Origin: a virus
Taxonomy: Duplodnaviria; Caudoviricetes
Reading direction: 5' to 3' (one strand)
Length of the DNA: 64,000 bases
Virus record (IMG/VR): IMGVR_UViG_2038011000_000015
Location: 1 to 64,000 of that record
The translations under genes and the position numbers were made by a program. The notes beneath the pieces are model-generated. The model saw only the letters and a program-made list of their open reading frames with translations, ran no database searches and was not told the origin of the DNA. Positions within the stretch are counted from its first letter, which is position 1, and each line of letters starts with the position of its first letter. Of this stretch, positions 3,933 through 33,485 are shown in pieces.

Positions 3933-4091
3933 ATGGCTATGATAGAGGTTGAAGTACACATGCAGGGGTCCTCTGACGCAGAGGCTGTGCCCGTCCGGCA
4001 GATTAGCGTTGCGGCGGTTCTGCGTGGGCTAAGCACTTCTGAGCCTGGTACGACGTCGCTGCCAGTCGAGCCAGAGGGCCACGACGAGTGA
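3933..4091 (+). CDS. Small hypothetical protein (52 aa, below the ORF-track cutoff)
   Basis: ATG at 3933 after AGGT, open to TGA at 4091; MAMIEVEVHMQGSS...; fills the gap. Confidence 0.45.
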   Translation: MAMIEVEVHMQGSSDAEAVPVRQISVAAVLRGLSTSEPGTTSLPVEPEGHDE

Positions 4092-4126
4092 GCCTATTCT
4101 CTCTATAGAGCGACAAGCTTGTGGAT

Positions 4127-4534
4127 ATGGCGACACGCGGCCGCATAGTGCAAGCGAATCAAGTGGTGCTGGCTCAAGCGGACTTTTTTGAGCCTGATGG
4201 CTTCACACGTGTAGCGTGGCTTGGTCCTGGTAGTATCGAAGCGCAGCTTTTCTCCAACAACACCGCGCTCGCGTGGACGCTTGTGTCTGGAGTCGCTGTT
4301 ACTGATGCGCAGGTCAACGCCGGGCAGATCTATTTTAGTGAGATTTCTGTTGTGCTTGGTTTCTATAGCGTGCGCTTCCGCCCGGATGGGTTGGGTTACT
4401 GGCGCCTAGTGTTGTCTTATCCAACGGGCAGGCAAACCTGTGTCTTGGAGTTCGATGTTGTTCCGTCAGCGCCCGTCATGGACGCGGGGCTACGAGCTTC
4501 GTTCATCAGGTCAGGTGGAAACTGTGGCTGCTAG
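4127..4534 (+). CDS. Hypothetical virion protein, Ig-like beta sandwich
   Basis: GFYSVRFRPDGLGYWRLVLSY strand pattern resembles 5443..6057 and the N-domain of 6360..7280. Confidence 0.6.
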   Translation: MATRGRIVQANQVVLAQADFFEPDGFTRVAWLGPGSIEAQLFSNNTALAWTLVSGVAVTDAQVNAGQIYFSEISVVLGFYSVRFRPDGLGYWRLVLSYPTGRQTCVLEFDVVPSAPVMDAGLRASFIRSGGNCGC

Positions 4535-14369: not shown

Positions 14370-14395
14370 TAGTCCTTTTGTCGGCAACCGTTCCA

Positions 14396-14470
14396 TAGAT
14401 CCAGATCCACATCGGAATCGCTCTGTATCTTCTTATTCAGATCTAGATGTGAAGTCTTCGATCTAAGGAG
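14396..14470 (+). promoter_or_regulatory. Structured 5' leader of the sheath gene with hexamer repeats
   Basis: Nested pairings TAGATC/GATCTA, CACATC/GATGTG and TCTG/CAGA ending at SD AAGGAG. Confidence 0.55.
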
Positions 14471-14482
14471 CCCGTCAATACA

Positions 14483-17400
14483 ATGGCTATCGGTCCGTTC
14501 ATTTCATACGCTCCGCCTGGGGTTTACACCCGCACTCTCTCAGAGACCAATGCTTCCAACTTGGTTGCTGGTCTCCGAATCCCAGCGCTGATCGGTGTGG
14601 GGCAGGAAGAGCTGGAGCAAGCTGATGTTGAGATTGTTCGCGGGTCGTCGGCCACGGTTGATCAACAGATCGTCTTTGAGGATGTTTCTCAGAGCTGGGT
14701 TGTCGATAGTCGGAACGTAAACAACCTGCTGCTTGGGGCACAGGATGGGACGCTCACGACGTTTCGAGTGCGCAACTTCCCGATCGTGGACGGCCAGGGG
14801 TTTGGGCGCGTCACCAACGATGTTCGGGCTGTATCGGTAACGGTGAACGGGAGTCTTGTCTCGTTGGGCGCCGTCAATGGTCAGCGTGGGACCGTGACGC
14901 TTCAGATTCCGACGCAGCCGAACGATGTGGTGCGCTGCACCTATTACTTCCATCGCGGCGATACCGTGTTTACGGATGACCTCTCCGAGCAGGTTACGCA
15001 AGACAACGCCACTTTGGTCTCGCCGGGTATTGCCCCGTTTCGAATCACAACCGGCACCAACGACAAGTTGGTTTTGACGGCAAATGGGATCACCGCAACC
15101 ATTACGCTACCATCGGGTGATCTGAGTGCCGCTACGGTAGCGACGGCCGTCAATGCTGCTCAAGTGGCGAACCTCTCGGCTTCGGTGTTTACTGACAATC
15201 GTGGTGCTGAGCATGTGCAGCTGACCAATCCTGTCGGGATTGCGATCGGTTCAGGGGCAGCGAATGGGCCGCTTGGCTGGTCCACCGGGACAGCGACGGC
15301 TCGCAACCGGGCGTTCAGGGTGTTTCAGCGGCCGATTGTTGATGGTACCGGCGGGGGCACCACCACCACGGATACATCGAAGGTCATCGCGAAGGTTGAT
15401 GGAAAGCAGGTTATTGTCGAGCGGGTTGACGGCGCCAATGGGGTTGTGACGCTGCCTTCTGCGCCTGCGCCGGGTTCCACTGTGACCATTCAGTACTGGG
15501 CCAACACGTGGCAGGACACGTTTGACTATTTGCCGAACAGCATGGTGACCACGGTGCTGCGTAGCGGCATCAGCCCAGGTCGGAACGATTTTATCCAGGG
15601 GACTGATTTCGTGATCAGCAACCCCTCGCCGGACGTGAGCGTCATCAACTGGGGCTCAAGTTTCCAAGTGATTGCGTCGAGCACCACACCGGGGGCAACA
15701 CCGTTTGACGGGCCATCAGGTTCGGGCGGGCAGATTGTGGGCACGCTGATCGATGATCAGTTGTACTTGGCTCCGTGTTCGCGGGTCACCAACACGTCAA
15801 CGATTCCAGCGGTGATTTCTCCGACAGACTTTCTGCTGCCGGAGATCCCGACTACGGGCAACGGTCGCAGTACCATCTTGGGTGCGAGTGCGTTTAGCTC
15901 GGTTGCGAACAGCCGTCAGGACCTTGCAACGAATCGGCCTGATCTCATTACCGTCTATACCGGCCGCAGTCTTCGGGATGCTCTGAATCGGCCTCCGGTG
16001 GACGTGGTTGAGGTGGATGGCTTGAACCGTCGCATCCGGTTGAGAACGCCGCAGCCACCTGACTACAACGCGTACGCGACTTTTTACTACAGCCGCCTTG
16101 CGGATGACACGTACCTCTTCACCAACGTTGTGCCGGGCGCGGTCGGGGTTGGCCAATATACGGTGTTTTCAGCGACGCAGGATCGGAACCTCTACGATGT
16201 TCGGTTCGCGAGCAAGTCGGGTCTGGCGCAGATAGTTCAATGGCCTCGAGGTGTGGAGCAGGTCCCAGATGCGTTCCACTCGGGTGAGGGCACACCGGTA
16301 TCGGAGTTCGTGACGGTTACCTTCGGTACGAGTCCGGCGTTGAACGCGGCGTACACGAACCGTGGTGCTGGCCCCTACTCGTTCTACAGCCCATTTTCGG
16401 CGACGTGGATCACGAAGGTCAACGGTACCAACGTAACCACCAACTTGGATGAACCCTCGGAAGCCTGGATGGTTGGCGGGCGTGTGAAGGGGGGAACCTT
16501 TGATATCACTAATGCCAACAATGCTCTGAATCTCTCTGTTGACGGCACCGTGTATGCGGTCACGCTGACAACGGGAGAGACGCAGACTGCAGAAGACATT
16601 GTTGATGATATCAATGCCGTCTTGGGCGCGAATGGCACGGCCAGCTACAAGCAAATTGACGGTGGTGATATTTTCTTCATCATCAAAGGCGCGAAGGTGC
16701 CTGGCGCACTACCTGCCGGATTGGATGATGTTGCGAACGTAACCATCCTTCAGAGCAGCGCGACGAGTTTGCTGGGTTTCCGCGCATTTGCTTCTGCGGA
16801 CGGTACAACGGGGGCGATTAACAAGCCGGCTACCATGGTAGGTGCCGAGGCGGGACCGTTCAATGGTGTCGTGGAGGGGCTGAATGACGAGTTCAACTTC
16901 CGAGTCAACGGTGTCGATTACAGCGTGACGTTGACTCCTGGCGATGTTGTGGATTCGGCGACGGTTGTCGCGGACATCAACACCACGGTGGGTCAGACGA
17001 TTGCGTCGGTAGGCACGGGTGCCAATCTGAACAAGATCCGGCTTACCAGCCCGACCAATGACGCGGGTTCATTCATCCTGATCAATCCAGGCTCCGCGAA
17101 TGACCTGTTGGGCTTCCCCCGCAACGCGTCGGCTAGCCAAACCTTGGTTGACGCCCAAGAAGTGGTTGATCGGCTGATGAGCACGCCTGGATATCTAGCG
17201 GGTGCTGTTGCGTACGTGGAAGAGATTGGCGGGAACGATTATATCGCGTTCGAGTCTCTCACCACTGGTGTCGCTACTTCGAGCATTGGGTTTGCGAACT
17301 CGTCTGCGTTCAATCCGACGACTGGCGTTGGAATCGTGCCGGGCAGTGATGGTGACGTCGGGGAAGCGGCTCAGGATAACTTTACGGTGACGTCGTCCAA

Positions 17401-18721
17401 TCCGACCGTTGGATCGTCGGGCGTTGGCATCCCAGGGCAGACCTACACGGATGCTCGGACCGGCTTGCGCTTCACGGTATTGCCATCGGCTACGGGGAGC
17501 TACTCGGCCGGCGGGTCCTTCACGCTGGAAGTGTCGCAGTTGTGGCAGGTCAATCCGTCTGTGCCTCGCTACGCTGTGGGTGGTCTTGAGCTGATCGTGT
17601 CCAATACTGTGGGGGTTGGAGCCAACGATACAGCGACTCTCGTGACGTACAACCCGAGCGGTGTTGAGCCCGCGGTAGGTGACTTTTACTTCGTCAGCTA
17701 CCGCTACCTCAAGCAGGACTACAGTGCGAAGATCTACCAGCAGCTTAAGACGATCGAGGCCAACTTCGGGCGTGTTTCGGCGGAGAATCGACTCACGCTC
17801 GCGGCGTACCTGGCGATCCTCAACGGGGCGGTGTTGATCGTTGTGAAGCAAGTGTTGAAGGTGCCTAACACCAACCAGGCATCCGACCAGGCATTCAATA
17901 CTGCGATTGATGAACTCGCATCGCCGTTGCCAGGCAATATCAGACCGGCGATCATCGTTCCGCTGGCGACCAGCACCGGGGTGTACACGCATCTCACGTC
18001 ACACTGTGAGATACAGTCCAACCCACGCAATCAGAGCGAGCGTACTGGCTTTATCGGGTTCGCAAGTGGAACTTCGCCGACGACAGCGCAGTCGATTGCG
18101 CGGGCGTTGAACTCTAGTCGAACCGTTGCGTTCTACCCGGACTCAGCCGTCATCACGTTGACCGACGAACTCGGTCAGTCGTTCGAGAGCTTGGTGGATG
18201 GAAGCTTTTTCGCGGCGGCCGTCTCGGGCGCAGTGGTATCGCCCGCGGTGGATGTTGCGACGCCGTATACACATCGTCGCATTCAGGGCTTTACGCGAAT
18301 CCCACGTGTACTAGACCCGGTAGAGGCCAATCAGACCGCCGTTGCGGGGATCACGGTTCTCGAGGACCTGGATCCGATCATTCGCATCCGACAGGGGCTC
18401 ACCACCAACATGACCTCTGTGCTGACGCGGTTACCAACGGTCACGCAGATTGCCGACTTTGTGCAACAGCAGAGCCGCGCGATCTTGGACAGCTTCGTAG
18501 GAACCAAGTTCTTGGCGGCTCGCACCAACGAGGTTGTTGTTTCAATGACTGGCTTGTTCCGGTCATTGGTACAGGCGGAGATCGTCGGCGCTTTCACCGG
18601 CATGACGGCGAACATCGACCCAGATGATCCCACGATTCTGCGGTTTGAAATGTACTATGCGCCGATCTTCCCGCTCTTGTACATCGTGTTGACGTTCAAC
18701 CTGCGCGCACGATTGGCGTAG
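14483..18721 (+). CDS. Contractile tail sheath protein (1412 aa, with multiple inserts)
   Basis: N-terminal PPGVYTR; C-terminal sheath domain (AFYPD..AAAVSG..GITVLE..FVGTKF..YAPIFPLLYIVLTF). Confidence 0.92.
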   Translation: MAIGPFISYAPPGVYTRTLSETNASNLVAGLRIPALIGVGQEELEQADVEIVRGSSATVDQQIVFEDVSQSWVVDSRNVNNLLLGAQDGTLTTFRVRNFPIVDGQGFGRVTNDVRAVSVTVNGSLVSLGAVNGQRGTVTLQIPTQPNDVVRCTYYFHRGDTVFTDDLSEQVTQDNATLVSPGIAPFRITTGTNDKLVLTANGITATITLPSGDLSAATVATAVNAAQVANLSASVFTDNRGAEHVQLTNPVGIAIGSGAANGPLGWSTGTATARNRAFRVFQRPIVDGTGGGTTTTDTSKVIAKVDGKQVIVERVDGANGVVTLPSAPAPGSTVTIQYWANTWQDTFDYLPNSMVTTVLRSGISPGRNDFIQGTDFVISNPSPDVSVINWGSSFQVIASSTTPGATPFDGPSGSGGQIVGTLIDDQLYLAPCSRVTNTSTIPAVISPTDFLLPEIPTTGNGRSTILGASAFSSVANSRQDLATNRPDLITVYTGRSLRDALNRPPVDVVEVDGLNRRIRLRTPQPPDYNAYATFYYSRLADDTYLFTNVVPGAVGVGQYTVFSATQDRNLYDVRFASKSGLAQIVQWPRGVEQVPDAFHSGEGTPVSEFVTVTFGTSPALNAAYTNRGAGPYSFYSPFSATWITKVNGTNVTTNLDEPSEAWMVGGRVKGGTFDITNANNALNLSVDGTVYAVTLTTGETQTAEDIVDDINAVLGANGTASYKQIDGGDIFFIIKGAKVPGALPAGLDDVANVTILQSSATSLLGFRAFASADGTTGAINKPATMVGAEAGPFNGVVEGLNDEFNFRVNGVDYSVTLTPGDVVDSATVVADINTTVGQTIASVGTGANLNKIRLTSPTNDAGSFILINPGSANDLLGFPRNASASQTLVDAQEVVDRLMSTPGYLAGAVAYVEEIGGNDYIAFESLTTGVATSSIGFANSSAFNPTTGVGIVPGSDGDVGEAAQDNFTVTSSNPTVGSSGVGIPGQTYTDARTGLRFTVLPSATGSYSAGGSFTLEVSQLWQVNPSVPRYAVGGLELIVSNTVGVGANDTATLVTYNPSGVEPAVGDFYFVSYRYLKQDYSAKIYQQLKTIEANFGRVSAENRLTLAAYLAILNGAVLIVVKQVLKVPNTNQASDQAFNTAIDELASPLPGNIRPAIIVPLATSTGVYTHLTSHCEIQSNPRNQSERTGFIGFASGTSPTTAQSIARALNSSRTVAFYPDSAVITLTDELGQSFESLVDGSFFAAAVSGAVVSPAVDVATPYTHRRIQGFTRIPRVLDPVEANQTAVAGITVLEDLDPIIRIRQGLTTNMTSVLTRLPTVTQIADFVQQQSRAILDSFVGTKFLAARTNEVVVSMTGLFRSLVQAEIVGAFTGMTANIDPDDPTILRFEMYYAPIFPLLYIVLTFNLRARLA

Positions 18722-25741: not shown

Positions 25742-26325
25742 TGGGTTCGGGACGCTCCGCGCTTGTTACGGTCGGAACGGATGGCTTCGTAGACTACGTG
25801 CAGGTACCGGAAGGTGAGAAGTACATGCTCGGCCCGGTCTCGGTCCTGCAGTTGATCGTTGGGTCCGTCCAGTCGATGCGCGCTGCCCGCGTGGCGCTCA
25901 AAGAGTTCGTCAAGACCGGCAAAGCGGTGGTGGCGGTTGACCTGGACAAGATGTGGTCGCTCTTGCCGTTTCGGCGTGCACGATATTCGTTCACTAACTC
26001 TCTTATGTCGGGCCGAAGTGAGAGCCCTTCGTCGGAGAGCAATATGAAGACTGCGTCTTACGGCACCCTGATGGCGAATGTCGAATTGGCGGAAGATATC
26101 GTGACCAAGGTAGCAACGACTCACGAGACGATCGATCGTCTTGAATGGGAGGGGAAACGTTTCGACGCCGCTCGCGCCCGTGGGGATCTGTTTCGGATTG
26201 CTTCTTTGGTGTCACAAATAGCTGAGAACGTCGATATGGCGCAACCATGGGTTGCACAGGACTTAGCGGTGATTGCAGCGCAAGCAGACGAGATCTACGA
26301 GCTTTTCCCGCACGATGGAGAATAG
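25741..26325 (+). CDS. Hypothetical protein (possible internal start at 26044)
   Basis: TAATG coupling; internal GGAG-n6-ATG at 26044 (MKTASY...). Confidence 0.7.
   Translation: MGSGRSALVTVGTDGFVDYVQVPEGEKYMLGPVSVLQLIVGSVQSMRAARVALKEFVKTGKAVVAVDLDKMWSLLPFRRARYSFTNSLMSGRSESPSSESNMKTASYGTLMANVELAEDIVTKVATTHETIDRLEWEGKRFDAARARGDLFRIASLVSQIAENVDMAQPWVAQDLAVIAAQADEIYELFPHDGE
25994..26007 (+). promoter_or_regulatory. Putative late promoter element CTAACTCTCTTATG
   Basis: Exact 14-mer repeated at intergenic-edge position 61565-61578. Confidence 0.5.
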
Positions 26326-26328
26326 AGT

Positions 26329-27042
26329 ATGGCATCTAACGTAAGTACCGCTAACTACCTGTACCGGCAGGGCACTGCACCGAACACTCGCGCAGCGGTT
26401 TCTCAGAAAAACAAGGTGTATTCGTACACTACAGGGGCGCAAGGCTTCCAGCAACTCGGAGTGATCTCTGAGTTTGGGTTTGATGAGTCGCGCGATGTCC
26501 AGGCGATTCGCGGCGTAGGGTTCGGCGATCAGGTGGCAGAGTTGGTCCCTGGTGTCACTGAGCCCATGACGCTGACGCTCAATAAGACATTGCTTTACAC
26601 GGTCAACATCTTCCAGATCGTGGGCTACAAGGGTGGCATCGATGGTTTGGTGCGCAGTCTAAGGCATCATCGATGGCCGTTCGATATCAAGCAGGAATTG
26701 GTAATCTCTGAGTTGGCGATCGCACAGGATCCAAGCGGTGCTTCTGCGCAAGCTACTGTTACCACAGGGCCCACGGCAGCGGACAATCCTATCGTCACGC
26801 CCCGTGCGCTCTTGACGTTCTATGAGGGGTGTTGGTTCAACAGCTACTCGGCATCGTTCGCGAGCGACTCGGCGATTGTCGCAGAGAACAGTTCTGTGAC
26901 GGTGTCGGACATCATTGATGGTGTATCGCAGTATGGTGAGTACATCGATTCTGGCCTAGCGCCGATCTCAGCGAACGGCGGTCCGGGCAAGGGGTACTCG
27001 CTCCGTTTTGCGAATAACTCGAACACGGTTACTGCGCTTTGA
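26329..27042 (+). CDS. Tail tube protein
   Basis: ESRDVQAIRGVGFGD..ELVPG..LTLNKT..PFDIKQ..YEGCWFNSYS..IVAENSSV tube-fold pattern; precedes the chaperones and tape measure. Confidence 0.8.
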   Translation: MASNVSTANYLYRQGTAPNTRAAVSQKNKVYSYTTGAQGFQQLGVISEFGFDESRDVQAIRGVGFGDQVAELVPGVTEPMTLTLNKTLLYTVNIFQIVGYKGGIDGLVRSLRHHRWPFDIKQELVISELAIAQDPSGASAQATVTTGPTAADNPIVTPRALLTFYEGCWFNSYSASFASDSAIVAENSSVTVSDIIDGVSQYGEYIDSGLAPISANGGPGKGYSLRFANNSNTVTAL

Positions 27043-27056
27043 AATGGAACTGACTT

Positions 27057-27194
27057 GGGTGACAGCGACGAACTAGATGTGAATTGAAGCGAACCAGATC
27101 AGATATGCACCTGCTTTTGTGTCCTTGTTTTTAGACTCAGATGTAGATCACGTCCTGTTTCTCACGCTGTCATCCTCAGCAAGATGAGGATGAT
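27057..27194 (+). promoter_or_regulatory. Structured intergenic RNA element with alternative folds over the RBS
   Basis: GGGTGACAGCG/CGCTGTCATCC 11-bp stem competes with the hairpin TCATCCTCA/TGAGGATGA that covers the SD. Confidence 0.6.
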
Positions 27195-28214
27195 GTGGGT
27201 ATCATAGATTCGAAAAGGCTCAATCAAGCACTGGCCAAGGCCAAGAACGTTGGCGTTGTTGAGTTGCCGTGCACCATCAGTGGTTGTGACCTTGTTTTTC
27301 GTAGTTTGCGACCGGAAGACTATACGGCGGCGTTGCAAGACTGCGAGGGGTTGCCGCAGGAAATGTACATCCCGCGGTACCAGAAGGCGCATGTCGCTAG
27401 AGCGATCATCGAGGTGAATGGCGTTGATCTGCGAGACACGCAGTTTGTCACCGTGGATGAGCCTGACAAGGATGGCGGCACCAAAAAGATCAAGCTTGAG
27501 CTGCATCAGTATCTGGCGTCTCACATGCTCGACACGTGGGGCAAAGAGGCGATTGATATTGCGTTTCGTAAGCTTGGGGAGGCGCTTGAGCTAGCTGAAA
27601 AGCGCGCCAAAGAGGGGGTAGCGTTCGCAACTGCGGATGAAACCAAAGAAGAGAAATTCCGGCGGTTGCTGCTCGAGACACGGGCGGCGGAAGGCGGGTT
27701 GCCCGAGACGCTGATCGATAAAGTCTATGATGAGCAAGGACTCATGCGCCGATCGACCGCGGAAGAGATCAAACGAGCGATGGACCGCACCGAGGCGCTG
27801 GCGCGGGAGCAAGAGGCCACCCATGTGCCCGCGCCAGCCGCTGTGGAGCCCGGCCCGTTGGAACCAGAGCCCAGTGAGGCGTCTGGAGCCCAAATGACGC
27901 CGGTTGCGCGCCATGCCGTCCCAGACCCGCATGTGACGTTGCAGCAAGCGATGGCTGCGCGTCAATCCCTGGAGGTCAAGTCTGAGCAGAACGTGGAAGT
28001 GCCACGACCAACGCGTGCCGCTCAGATTGCTGCGCTCGAGGGGGAGAGTGACGTCGTGCCCGACATCGATACTGCGGTTTCTTTGCAGAGCGGCGCCGAT
28101 GATGTGATCGAGCTGAAAGCAGCGCCGATCGATCCTCATGCGGCAAGCTTGATCATTGATAGCCCTCCGGTCGCTGGCATCAACCCTCGCTTTCGGCCGC
28201 CACAACGAGCGTAG
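27195..28214 (+). CDS. Putative tail assembly chaperone 1
   Basis: Lies between tube and tape measure; LVFRSL..ARAIIEVNGVDL pattern; low-complexity C-terminus. Confidence 0.65.
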   Translation: MGIIDSKRLNQALAKAKNVGVVELPCTISGCDLVFRSLRPEDYTAALQDCEGLPQEMYIPRYQKAHVARAIIEVNGVDLRDTQFVTVDEPDKDGGTKKIKLELHQYLASHMLDTWGKEAIDIAFRKLGEALELAEKRAKEGVAFATADETKEEKFRRLLLETRAAEGGLPETLIDKVYDEQGLMRRSTAEEIKRAMDRTEALAREQEATHVPAPAAVEPGPLEPEPSEASGAQMTPVARHAVPDPHVTLQQAMAARQSLEVKSEQNVEVPRPTRAAQIAALEGESDVVPDIDTAVSLQSGADDVIELKAAPIDPHAASLIIDSPPVAGINPRFRPPQRA

Positions 28215-28217
28215 GCC

Positions 28218-29435
28218 ATGGGGCGTCAACTCAAGAAATACGAGGACCAGCCTCTCGAAGATGAGGACCTCAGCATCACCGCGCCGGTGGAGCCCGAGGT
28301 TAACCCGGAGGTCTACAGGGATGTGGACCCGATGTTGTTTCGGGGTTTTCTCACCGCCTACGCCCGTGTCAACGACATCCCGTTCGTTTTTAAGAGTCTC
28401 AACCACCACGAGTTCGAGTTGCTTCGATTCTCGGGTTGTTTTGACGGGGCACCGGACGTGAATTCATGGGCTACGTTGCTTGCTTACTGCGTGTTCATGA
28501 TCGACGGCGTCAATATTCTGCCGGAGCGTGATCGCTGGCTGTCGAAGTTGCGCGAGATCTTCACCGCGTTGCCAACAGAGGCGACTGCCCGGGTGATTCG
28601 CCACATCAGCGAGGTCAATCGCCGCGCATCGACCGCGGTCTATTTGACTGAAGCGTACGCCATGGAAACCATCTCGCGCTATCGCTGGCTGCAGCTCAAG
28701 CGGCTCGATCTCAGCTCGGTTGCGGTTACCGGGGTCAATGGAACGCAGTGGTTGGGGTTGAACACTGCGCAGCTTGTATGGCGGGCGGTCAATCACATCG
28801 AGGATCGCAATGAGGCGATTGAGCGTGATTGGGAGCATGCGAAGTTCGTTGGCTCCTGCATGGCAGGAAAGGGAATCGCGAAGGTCTACAACCAAGATGC
28901 ACGCAGGCGCCGTCAAGAGCGGGAGGAGCGCATGACCCGTAAGGACAAGATTCTGCGCAAGTGGGTTTTAGGAGAGGAGGTTCAGGACGGCGTGGTCCAG
29001 GGGCCCGGCGTGATCATGGCTGTACCACGGACCGTGGAAGAGCTTACGACGCAGCTTGAGCGAGATATCCGTGGGGAGAAGGACTGGCATGACCGTGTTG
29101 TTGAGGAGCACGAAGCACGCGTAAGGGCGGGATATGCGGAACGCCGCGAGCAGCTCGAGCGTGTGGCTCAGGAGAGTTTGGAGCGAGCGCCTGAGCGTGG
29201 TGTGTTTGGCGGCGGCGACCTGCAGCAAGGGTATTCACCTGCTGAGATTGATGAGCTGGTGCGTCGCCGAAAGCAGATCCTTGCCCAAGAGGTCGCGCGA
29301 ATGCAGGTGGACCCTGGTCTAGACGATAAGACTGAGCGTTTTGTCAATCGTTGGTTCGGTGGGGATTACTCTGAAGCGCAGGCTATCAATAGAGACGCGG
29401 TAGACGCGTCAACAACACCTAGTCGCAGGAAGTAA
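28218..29435 (+). CDS. Putative tail assembly chaperone 2
   Basis: FVFKSL..LAYCVFMIDGVNI echoes chaperone 1; directly precedes the tape measure. Confidence 0.6.
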   Translation: MGRQLKKYEDQPLEDEDLSITAPVEPEVNPEVYRDVDPMLFRGFLTAYARVNDIPFVFKSLNHHEFELLRFSGCFDGAPDVNSWATLLAYCVFMIDGVNILPERDRWLSKLREIFTALPTEATARVIRHISEVNRRASTAVYLTEAYAMETISRYRWLQLKRLDLSSVAVTGVNGTQWLGLNTAQLVWRAVNHIEDRNEAIERDWEHAKFVGSCMAGKGIAKVYNQDARRRRQEREERMTRKDKILRKWVLGEEVQDGVVQGPGVIMAVPRTVEELTTQLERDIRGEKDWHDRVVEEHEARVRAGYAERREQLERVAQESLERAPERGVFGGGDLQQGYSPAEIDELVRRRKQILAQEVARMQVDPGLDDKTERFVNRWFGGDYSEAQAINRDAVDASTTPSRRK

Positions 29436-32873: not shown

Positions 32874-33485
32874 GTGCCAACGATTCCATCCGCTAACCCA
32901 ACTGACTTTGCGCGCATCGACGCGCCTACCGAACAACTTGGGTACGTGCACGGGTTGGGGAAGTCGCCCCGGCGTTCGTTTATCCCGATGGCGTTTCAAA
33001 TCACGAGCCCCTTCAACAGCAGAAAGGCGATGTTGCCTCATGCGTTGGTGATGCACGTCAATCCGTCTTCCCTGACGTTGTCGCATACGAAACGTGTTGA
33101 ACGTTTCCAGACCCGCGGGGGATTCGTGGAGCAGCATTGGGGGGATGAGCTGACCGACATCCAGGCGAGTGGCTCGACCGGAGCTTTCATGAACGTCTAC
33201 ACAGGGCTTTCATCGGTTCTTCGGCAAAATACCATCGCGTGGGATCGATATCGCGACCTGTATGACCTCTACCGGTGCAATGGCGCGGTTTTCGGCCCGA
33301 GTGGCAGCATCGTTCTTCAGGGGCACGTAATGCTGATGTTTGATCGTGGCACCTATCTCGGGCACTTCGAGAACTTCGAGGTGGAGGAAACAGACGACAA
33401 CCCGTTCACGTTTCAGGTCTCTTGGTCGTTCAAGTGTGACGAGGAAGTGCTGCAGATCCCGGCGTCAACTTCTGGTACTGCATAG
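32874..33485 (+). CDS. Tail tube initiator-like baseplate protein (paralogue A)
   Basis: VNPSSL..VEQHWGDEL..YLGHFENFEVEE..PFTFQVSWSF; follows the tape measure. Confidence 0.7.
   Translation: MPTIPSANPTDFARIDAPTEQLGYVHGLGKSPRRSFIPMAFQITSPFNSRKAMLPHALVMHVNPSSLTLSHTKRVERFQTRGGFVEQHWGDELTDIQASGSTGAFMNVYTGLSSVLRQNTIAWDRYRDLYDLYRCNGAVFGPSGSIVLQGHVMLMFDRGTYLGHFENFEVEETDDNPFTFQVSWSFKCDEEVLQIPASTSGTA

Follow-up and report, generated by a model that had tools for sequence, protein, structure and literature searches.

Why does a tail gene module of a huge phage, otherwise packed almost without gaps, leave a long stretch open between two of its genes? The window analyzed in this study comprises 64 kb of DNA, the first part of a 93-kb viral record with an estimated completeness of about 20%; judged by its homologs, it is a piece of a huge phage with kinship to Tunturiibacter phage Tunturi_5 and Bacillus phage G. 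Other gaps in the module of interest measure -4 to +10 nt, and hence the 152-nt gap between the genes at 26329-27042 and 27195-28214, both on the plus strand like all elements of the gap itself, stands out.

The upstream gene (26329-27042, 237 aa) has tblastn homologs in Tunturi_5 (308 kb; gp329, 47% identity), in an uncultured 485-kb phage (44%) and in phage G (gp180, 27%). Both gp329 and gp180 are annotated as virion structural proteins, and the gene order in phage G is sheath, gp179, gp180, frameshifted tail assembly chaperone, tape measure. Furthermore, the 237-aa protein adjoins, in the Atlas, a cluster carrying Phi812_tail_tube. The protein itself has no Pfam or PHROG match; a PHROGs search with the tube family gave weak 'virion structural protein' matches and nothing else, a PDB profile search with the same family gave no match, and the AlphaFold models of the candidate, with a pLDDT of 28 alone and 38 with an alignment of 35 sequences, were too poor for use. 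Because the assignment derives from the synteny with phage G and from the Atlas lead, and the protein lacks a Pfam or PHROG match of its own, its identity as the tail-tube protein is probable, not proven. The downstream gene (27195-28214, 339 aa) possibly encodes a tail assembly chaperone, a label taken from gene order and from weak Atlas leads to tail-chaperone families; Pfam, PHROG and phage tblastn searches returned no match for it. Its GTG start at 27195 agrees with the relatives, whose ATG or GTG lines up with residue 1.

The original prediction, made from the letters of this DNA, had placed a two-state RNA switch in the gap, and every one of its coordinates proved correct when read off the sequence. 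Strand A (GGGTGACAGCG, 27057-67), which begins 14 nt past the TGA stop codon of the tube gene (27040-42), forms a long stem of 11 pairs, one of them G-U, with the segment CGCTGTCATCC (27165-75) of strand B (27165-78). An inner stem of seven pairs including one U-G, GATGTGA (27076-82) with TCACGTC (27148-54), is also present in the window and lies within its predicted open fold. Nine pairs between TCATCCTCA (27170-78), the part of strand B nearer the start codon, and strand C (TGAGGATGA, 27185-93) make up a hairpin with the 6-nt loop gcaaga, and this hairpin holds the Shine-Dalgarno (SD) sequence GAGG (27186-89), 5 nt ahead of the GTG. Since the long stem and the hairpin both claim positions 27170-75, they are mutually exclusive. 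A mini-ORF of 10 codons (ATG...TAG, 27045-27077) overlaps strand A; a leader peptide was considered and rejected, as the mini-ORF is absent from the relatives and, not being conserved, is probably fortuitous.

According to RNAfold, the hairpin, of 9-13 bp, can be extended to 27165-27197 and then covers the GAGG as well as the GUG start codon. In the minimum-energy fold of the window, strand A re-pairs with 27151-64 in a shifted long stem, and because strand A takes this alternative partner, observed in the window and its closest relatives only, the hairpin and the long stem coexist there. The SD and the start codon are paired in both the minimum-energy and the centroid fold, and the predicted unpaired probability at 27185-96 is at most 0.09. 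The spacer as a whole folds with -48.4 kcal/mol, a value that is modest by itself (z = -2.1; 6 of 200 shuffles as good). The start at 27195 is the second most structured among the 43 gene starts of the window. In folds from -45 to +6, the GTG starts at 32874 and 49815 are as structured or inaccessible as the one at 27195; they may be mis-called starts or additional ribosome-binding sites with structure.

Is this arrangement a peculiarity of one record, or has it been kept in evolution? Searching viral contigs with the tube protein yielded 69 loci. The order of tube gene, spacer and next gene is kept in at least 50 related contigs, and at most loci 50-250 nt of spacer separate the tube gene from a homolog of the 339-aa gene, whose ATG aligns with the GTG at 27195. 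A covariance model (R1), built from the first MAFFT alignment and run over 62 sources, found 28 true matches, one per locus and always at the junction of the tube gene and the next gene. The window contains a single match (27040-27197, 132 bits), by which we delimit the whole element as a structured intercistronic spacer at 27043-27194; the model detected no second copy in the 93-kb record, nor elsewhere in three complete relatives. An Rfam cmscan of 26000-28500 with E-values up to 10 returned no family, only two snoRNA noise matches of 17 and 20 bits versus gathering scores of 80 and 95. Among public sequencing runs, the DNA of the window was matched in DNA metagenomes and in none of the runs listed as RNA. 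This mRNA element without an Rfam match is previously undescribed.

In nearly all spacers read, a hairpin covers the SD, often with a wholly different sequence. Its arms are CATCCTC and GAGGATG in close relatives, TTCATCTCCA and TGGAGATGAA in locus L044, TCTC-CACC and GGTG-GAGA in the group of L041, L050 and L053, and CATCCC and GGGATG in L033, where the ATG is included. For every one of these variants, an upstream strand is complementary to the 5' arm and to a few more nucleotides directly ahead of it, and sequence-distinct versions, such as those of L044 and L033, retain the three-strand logic. The element is absent from the short-spacer relatives L037, L038, L066 and L070. In L052, a 140-aa gene of the Endonuclease VII family (3952-4374; Pfam E = 5e-22) has been inserted into the spacer after strand B and an SD-covering hairpin, so that the element and the start at which the downstream gene originally began are now apart; the insertion looks like a mobile nuclease.

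The covariation check that the original prediction had called for reveals compensatory changes in both the long stem and the SD hairpin among about 28 related phage contigs. In the model alignment, the open helix (A with B) is paired in 92% of the cells, with double changes at 10 of 11 pairs and none of 500 shuffles as good; the closed hairpin (B with C) is paired in 88% of the cells, with double changes at 9 of 9 pairs. Shuffled and slid controls fall far below both helices. These counts are drawn from related sequences and hence do not equal independent events, and the model to which the alignment was fitted already contains the core pairs of both helices. Its structure does not include the four outermost pairs of the long helix and the two outermost pairs of the hairpin, which are therefore unbiased by the fit (four of six contested-site pairs for the open fold, two of six for the closed one). 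Taken alone, the contested positions 27170-75 covary with strand A and with strand C; positions 27170, 27172 and 27175 change along with both partners in several lineages, and each contested base can pair with either partner in 18-25 of the 28 sequences. Non-seed sequences are paired at 88% (open) and 84% (closed). In a test that requires no alignment, 28 of 44 unique spacers show stronger binding of strand A to strand B than their dinucleotide shuffles (p ≤ 0.05). Both helices are thus maintained by compensatory evolution across about 28 related phages. The inner stem fared differently: across the relatives it is paired in 63% of the cells, which equals the shuffle mean, and this part of the original prediction is not conserved.

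The spacer therefore presents a fold in which the SD and the start codon are paired, and an exclusive 11-bp helix that shares 27170-75 and itself covaries. These are two of the properties that mark the sequester/anti-sequester class, and the proposed pair of helices, with the SD and start codon of the 27195 gene as its target, is borne out in this respect. A rival structure has to be weighed here, i.e. a static attenuator, in which a long-helix core of 5-7 bp is stacked on the SD hairpin and constitutively lowers translation, the additional nucleotides of strand A having no dynamic role. RNAalifold, run on two MAFFT alignments of 14 and 17 spacers, places both helices side by side: each time the consensus contains a long-range helix of 7 bp that directly borders the SD hairpin, and the intervening sequence is free of helices. 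The minimum-energy fold of the window combines hairpin and long stem likewise, and the predicted ensemble described below is mostly closed. Yet the outer pairs 27057-60/27172-75, which exclude the hairpin and are absent from the model structure, covary all the same; the three positions named above change with both partners, and for several relatives the calculated energies favor the open fold. We consider a purely static element very unlikely.

A separate matter is the balance between the two folds. In the predicted equilibrium ensemble of the window, the closed fold accounts for about 94% and the full open helix for about 0.1%, and the closed fold is favored by roughly 4-5 kcal/mol. The original prediction had named the dominance of one fold among three findings that would speak against a switch; such dominance is indeed what the calculation gives for the window, and the covariation counts against discarding the switch on that ground. 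In well-aligned relatives the predicted difference between open and closed fold lies between -6.5 and +6 kcal/mol, and in many of them it is no larger than 2 kcal/mol. The two folds are, by these predictions, close in energy relative to the approximately 15-20 kcal/mol of each helix; given the span of the differences, no uniform set point is evident.

The order of synthesis adds a further aspect. For window transcripts ending at 27178-27191, the predicted minimum-energy fold is the open helix, inner stem included, and it turns closed at 27194, when strand C is complete. The same holds for the relatives in so far as transcripts cut before strand C have the open helix in their minimum-energy fold in 20 of 20 cases. 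Path searches from open to closed predict barriers of about 4-27 kcal/mol, and about 11-14 kcal/mol for the window. Window transcripts truncated at the 5' end are predicted to adopt the closed hairpin. By these models, the energetics fit a transient opening on nascent RNA, or else an equilibrium in which strand A makes the opening of the hairpin cheaper.

If the folds alternate, what could tip the balance? One trigger named in the original prediction was the ribosome that ends translation of the tube ORF. Ribosomes at the tube stop codon would cover strand A, the hairpin would close, and downstream output would be inverse to tube translation. The footprint of a terminating ribosome reaches about 12-15 nt downstream, and the 14 nt between stop codon and strand A in the window would suit it, as would the distances of at most 15 nt in 7 of 27 relatives. 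Over all relatives, the distance varies from 2 to 49 nt around a median of 20 nt, and an extra hairpin often occupies the interval. Because of this variation and the extra hairpins, a design in which terminating ribosomes occlude strand A is not conserved, and we hold such a trigger to be exceedingly doubtful. The extra GC-rich hairpin lies in the first 20-50 nt past the tube stop codon; it has no U-run and is found between stop codon and strand A in many relatives (L008, L010, L031, L042, L044, L048, L053), and the window is without one.

The interior of the long-range helix contains another candidate. It has no conserved helix, yet its primary sequence is conserved: A(G/A)A(T/C) units with a period of 5-6 nt are grouped in two clusters on either side of a variable segment. 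Cluster 1 (CTAGATGTGAA...CCAGATCAGAT, 27073-27108) is conserved in the model alignment, and its 5-6 nt spacing is strongly enriched; cluster 2 (TAGAC-TCAGAT-GTAGATC, 27131-27149) is the most conserved primary-sequence block of the spacer and the only chain of at least three units in the 93-kb record. Chains of at least two units occur in 47 of 50 tube-chaperone spacers versus 9 of 200 coding controls (4.5%), and in 35 of 43 sheath leaders versus 8 of 258 coding controls (3%). Two other readings of the repeats were rejected. A 'start-stop' reading of AUGUGA/AUGUAG lacks an SD upstream, and the second codon is often a non-stop codon in relatives; a cluster of Dam GATC sites is not plausible, as GATC is not strictly conserved. 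The UGU(A/G)NAU core of the repeats we take to resemble eukaryotic PUF sites, and positions 27144-57 presumably resemble the 3' end of 16S rRNA.

The same arrays are present in the leader of the sheath gene of the window (14370-14482; the sheath gene, ORF 14483-18721, is homologous to the tail sheath gene of Tunturi_5), where the exact 11-mer CTAGATGTGAA stands 30 nt before the ATG; a second copy lies at 27073. In the sheath leaders of relatives, the arrays recur and mostly end about 30 nt ahead of the start codon. By eye, a conserved SD-sequestering fold is not evident in the sheath leader. Further array-bearing leaders of relatives occur at L130, L132 and L133 (homologous loci of three complete relatives), L131 and L134: one follows a structural-looking gene ending in ...FTVT*, then reads AGATGAGGAT and then ATG; another lies just past the 3' end of a tRNA, and another directly before a start codon. 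Taken together, the sequences suggest a small set of leaders with a common repeat module. In the complete relatives, a degenerate three-unit pattern is no commoner genome-wide than its mirrored control. Because the arrays are also found in other leaders, which have no conserved SD-sequestering fold, they form a separable module; judged by sequence, they could be a protein-binding operator on RNA or a signal at the DNA level.

The first of these possibilities amounts to a gate acting in trans. An oligomeric or cooperative protein of phage or host would bind both clusters, stabilize or break up the long helix that encloses them and thereby switch the SD hairpin, and it would act on the leader of the sheath gene and a few more leaders as well. 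Repetition of short motifs at the period of the binding sites is a common trait of TRAP and HutP sites and of the T4 gene 32 operator. The enrichment of the 5-6 nt arrays in tube-chaperone spacers and sheath leaders over coding sequence, the uniqueness of the three-unit chain in the record, the preservation of primary sequence where no helix is predicted, and the recurrence of the arrays in sheath leaders of window and relatives and in further leaders of complete relatives all agree with such a factor. The lack of a conserved SD-sequestering fold in the other array leaders and the genome-wide parity of the degenerate pattern with its mirrored control point the other way. We regard this account as unlikely; a bound protein, also suggested in the original prediction, nevertheless stays in the discussion because the interior contains conserved repeat arrays, which a purely self-contained switch leaves unexplained.

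A more specific version takes the long-range helix as an enclosure for a (C/U)AGA(U/C) platform on which an oligomeric phage protein assembles, so that the element would be an assembly-feedback riboregulator. We judge this quite unlikely. Were it true, candidate binders would be unassembled tube, sheath or chaperone protein; the pool of free tail protein would set chaperone and tape-measure output through the choice of A:B versus B:C, and one protein would coordinate the leaders of the sheath gene and a few structural genes, i.e. a post-transcriptional regulon of huge phages.

The second possibility places the function of the arrays in the DNA, as late promoters or activator sites. Transcripts initiated in the spacer would lack strand A and be closed, and only read-through from the tube gene would open the site, the reverse of the logic of T4 genes e and soc. 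The arrays do lie about 17-45 nt upstream of several structural-gene starts and are oriented with the genes; the sheath leader and the spacer contain the identical 11-mer, and the 5'-truncated transcripts of the window are predicted to be closed. A scan for sigma-70-like promoters, on the other hand, detected no candidate in the spacer; it would be unusual for a promoter to consist of tandem units that vary in copy number and recur every 5-6 nt, and a promoter that yields silent transcripts alone has no obvious use. Furthermore, strands A and B covary, and this covariation indicates that a functional RNA spans the arrays. A function at the DNA level is in our view of very low probability.

Differential expression across the junction could also be achieved after transcription or at its end. 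In phage G and Tunturi_5, a terminator hairpin with a U-run follows the homologous gene (L003, 8390-8420; L001, 8695-8725), which indicates that lower expression past the tube gene is a recurrent need, served here by a different device: a scan for intrinsic terminators found none in the spacer, where the hairpin is followed by GUGGGUAUCAU and no U-run. The need for differential expression, together with the GC-rich hairpins without U-run between stop codon and strand A of many relatives, would agree with an element of RNA processing or stability, in which cleavage parts a stable sheath-to-tube mRNA from the downstream message and the helices protect the ends. Yet helices of 9-11 bp are too short for a classical RNase III site, and the hairpin is set exactly over the SD and start codon even in relatives of diverse sequence, a placement that points to control of initiation. 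A role in processing is highly improbable. Riboswitch aptamer features were not detected either, as there is no internal helix on either alignment and the inner stem fails the covariation test. Features that would identify riboswitch aptamers, intrinsic terminators or RNase III sites are thus all lacking in the element.

We consider it likely, then, that the spacer is a two-state gate on translation, and only slightly less so that it is a cis-acting two-state translational control element of a polycistronic tail mRNA. In the closed fold, strand B (27170-78) would pair with strand C (27185-93), with a possible extension to the GUG, and bury the GAGG SD and the start codon. In the open fold, strand A (27057-67), which lies some 100 nt farther upstream, would pair with 27165-75 of strand B and capture six of the nine nucleotides of the 5' arm of the hairpin, so that the ribosome-binding site would be free. 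Because A and B are transcribed ahead of C, the open fold should form first, and the RNA would afterwards relax toward the closed fold or equilibrate with it. In its intrinsic version, strand A would either lower the cost of opening the hairpin or provide a brief open period on nascent RNA. Such open-then-closed folding would limit initiation per transcript on the downstream tail-assembly genes, and the tube gene upstream would meanwhile be translated freely; limited downstream initiation would suit a phage that requires many tube subunits and few copies of chaperone and tape measure. Granted a gate, intrinsic folding kinetics or equilibrium have somewhat under an even chance of being what operates it; a factor on the A(G/A)A(U/C) arrays that tips the balance is a tentative second candidate, a little further from an even chance, and the remainder falls to other triggers.

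Almost all knowledge of huge phages comes from metagenomes, and their post-transcriptional regulation is practically unexplored. The element is placed where tailed phages must cut expression about a hundredfold, from the major tail-tube protein to low-copy assembly genes; other phages use terminators at this point, and the clade of the window appears to use a conformational RNA gate. As a natural and compact example of three-strand switching, available in many sequence-distinct versions, it may serve as a model for folding kinetics and as a template for design, and the repeat arrays may lead to a new regulator common to several structural-gene leaders.

How does the element relate to known systems? 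Our verdict, based on sequence comparison, is that it would work like the known sequester/anti-sequester mRNA switches and would represent a new family in a known class. In the RNA phage MS2, a transient permissive fold, in which the SD is free, limits how much maturation protein is translated (PMC4615214); an inhibitory fold takes over later, and both alternative folds are conserved (PMC4615214). Like the MS2 maturation leader, the spacer belongs to a phage mRNA and precedes the gene of a putative low-copy structural protein whose SD would be free only in a transient fold. In MS2, however, it is a long-distance pairing that inhibits in the end and a local hairpin that forms transiently, and this arrangement is reversed in the huge-phage spacer. 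Moreover, the MS2 leader is the 5' UTR of an RNA genome and the element described here an intercistronic spacer of a dsDNA phage; there is no sequence relationship, and the kinetics of the spacer are predicted only.

In the hok mRNAs (tac/ucb/dcb elements of plasmid R1-type toxin-antitoxin loci), an upstream activator strand likewise competes for the strand that sequesters the SD. Their alternative pairings were reportedly shown by Gerdes and co-workers through coupled three-way covariations. The switch of hok is set off by 3' processing that frees the activator strand, and an antisense RNA takes part; neither is known for the spacer, and the biological role of hok differs. Lambda cIII and T4 genes e, soc and 49 provide precedents among dsDNA phages for mRNAs in which initiation is set by alternative or transcript-dependent structures that occlude the SD. 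The alternatives of cIII lie in the start region itself, where RNase III shifts the balance, and the T4 hairpins over the SD are bypassed by late promoters inside them; neither system is known to possess repeat arrays or a conserved anti-sequestering strand that acts over a long range.

Two further groups share single aspects with the spacer. As in riboswitch platforms in which P1 competes with an SD sequester, the 3' strand of a closing helix overlaps the anti-SD strand, and the helix encloses conserved nucleotides. Unlike in riboswitches, the interior of the spacer is made up of short repeats in tandem, shared with leaders that lack the closing helix, and it has no conserved internal helices, aptamer-like junction or Rfam match. 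The operators of TRAP, HutP and T4 gene 32 may be comparable to the purine-rich (C/U)AGA(U/C) units, which recur at a period of 5-6 nt in two clusters near the ribosome-binding site. Operators of the TRAP/HutP type carry several NAG-type triplets at a regular period of 5-7 nt, to which a ring-shaped oligomer binds. TRAP sites are (G/U)AG repeats with spacers of 2-3 nt, and the arrays of the spacer differ from all three operators by their two to four units per cluster and by the sequence of the unit.
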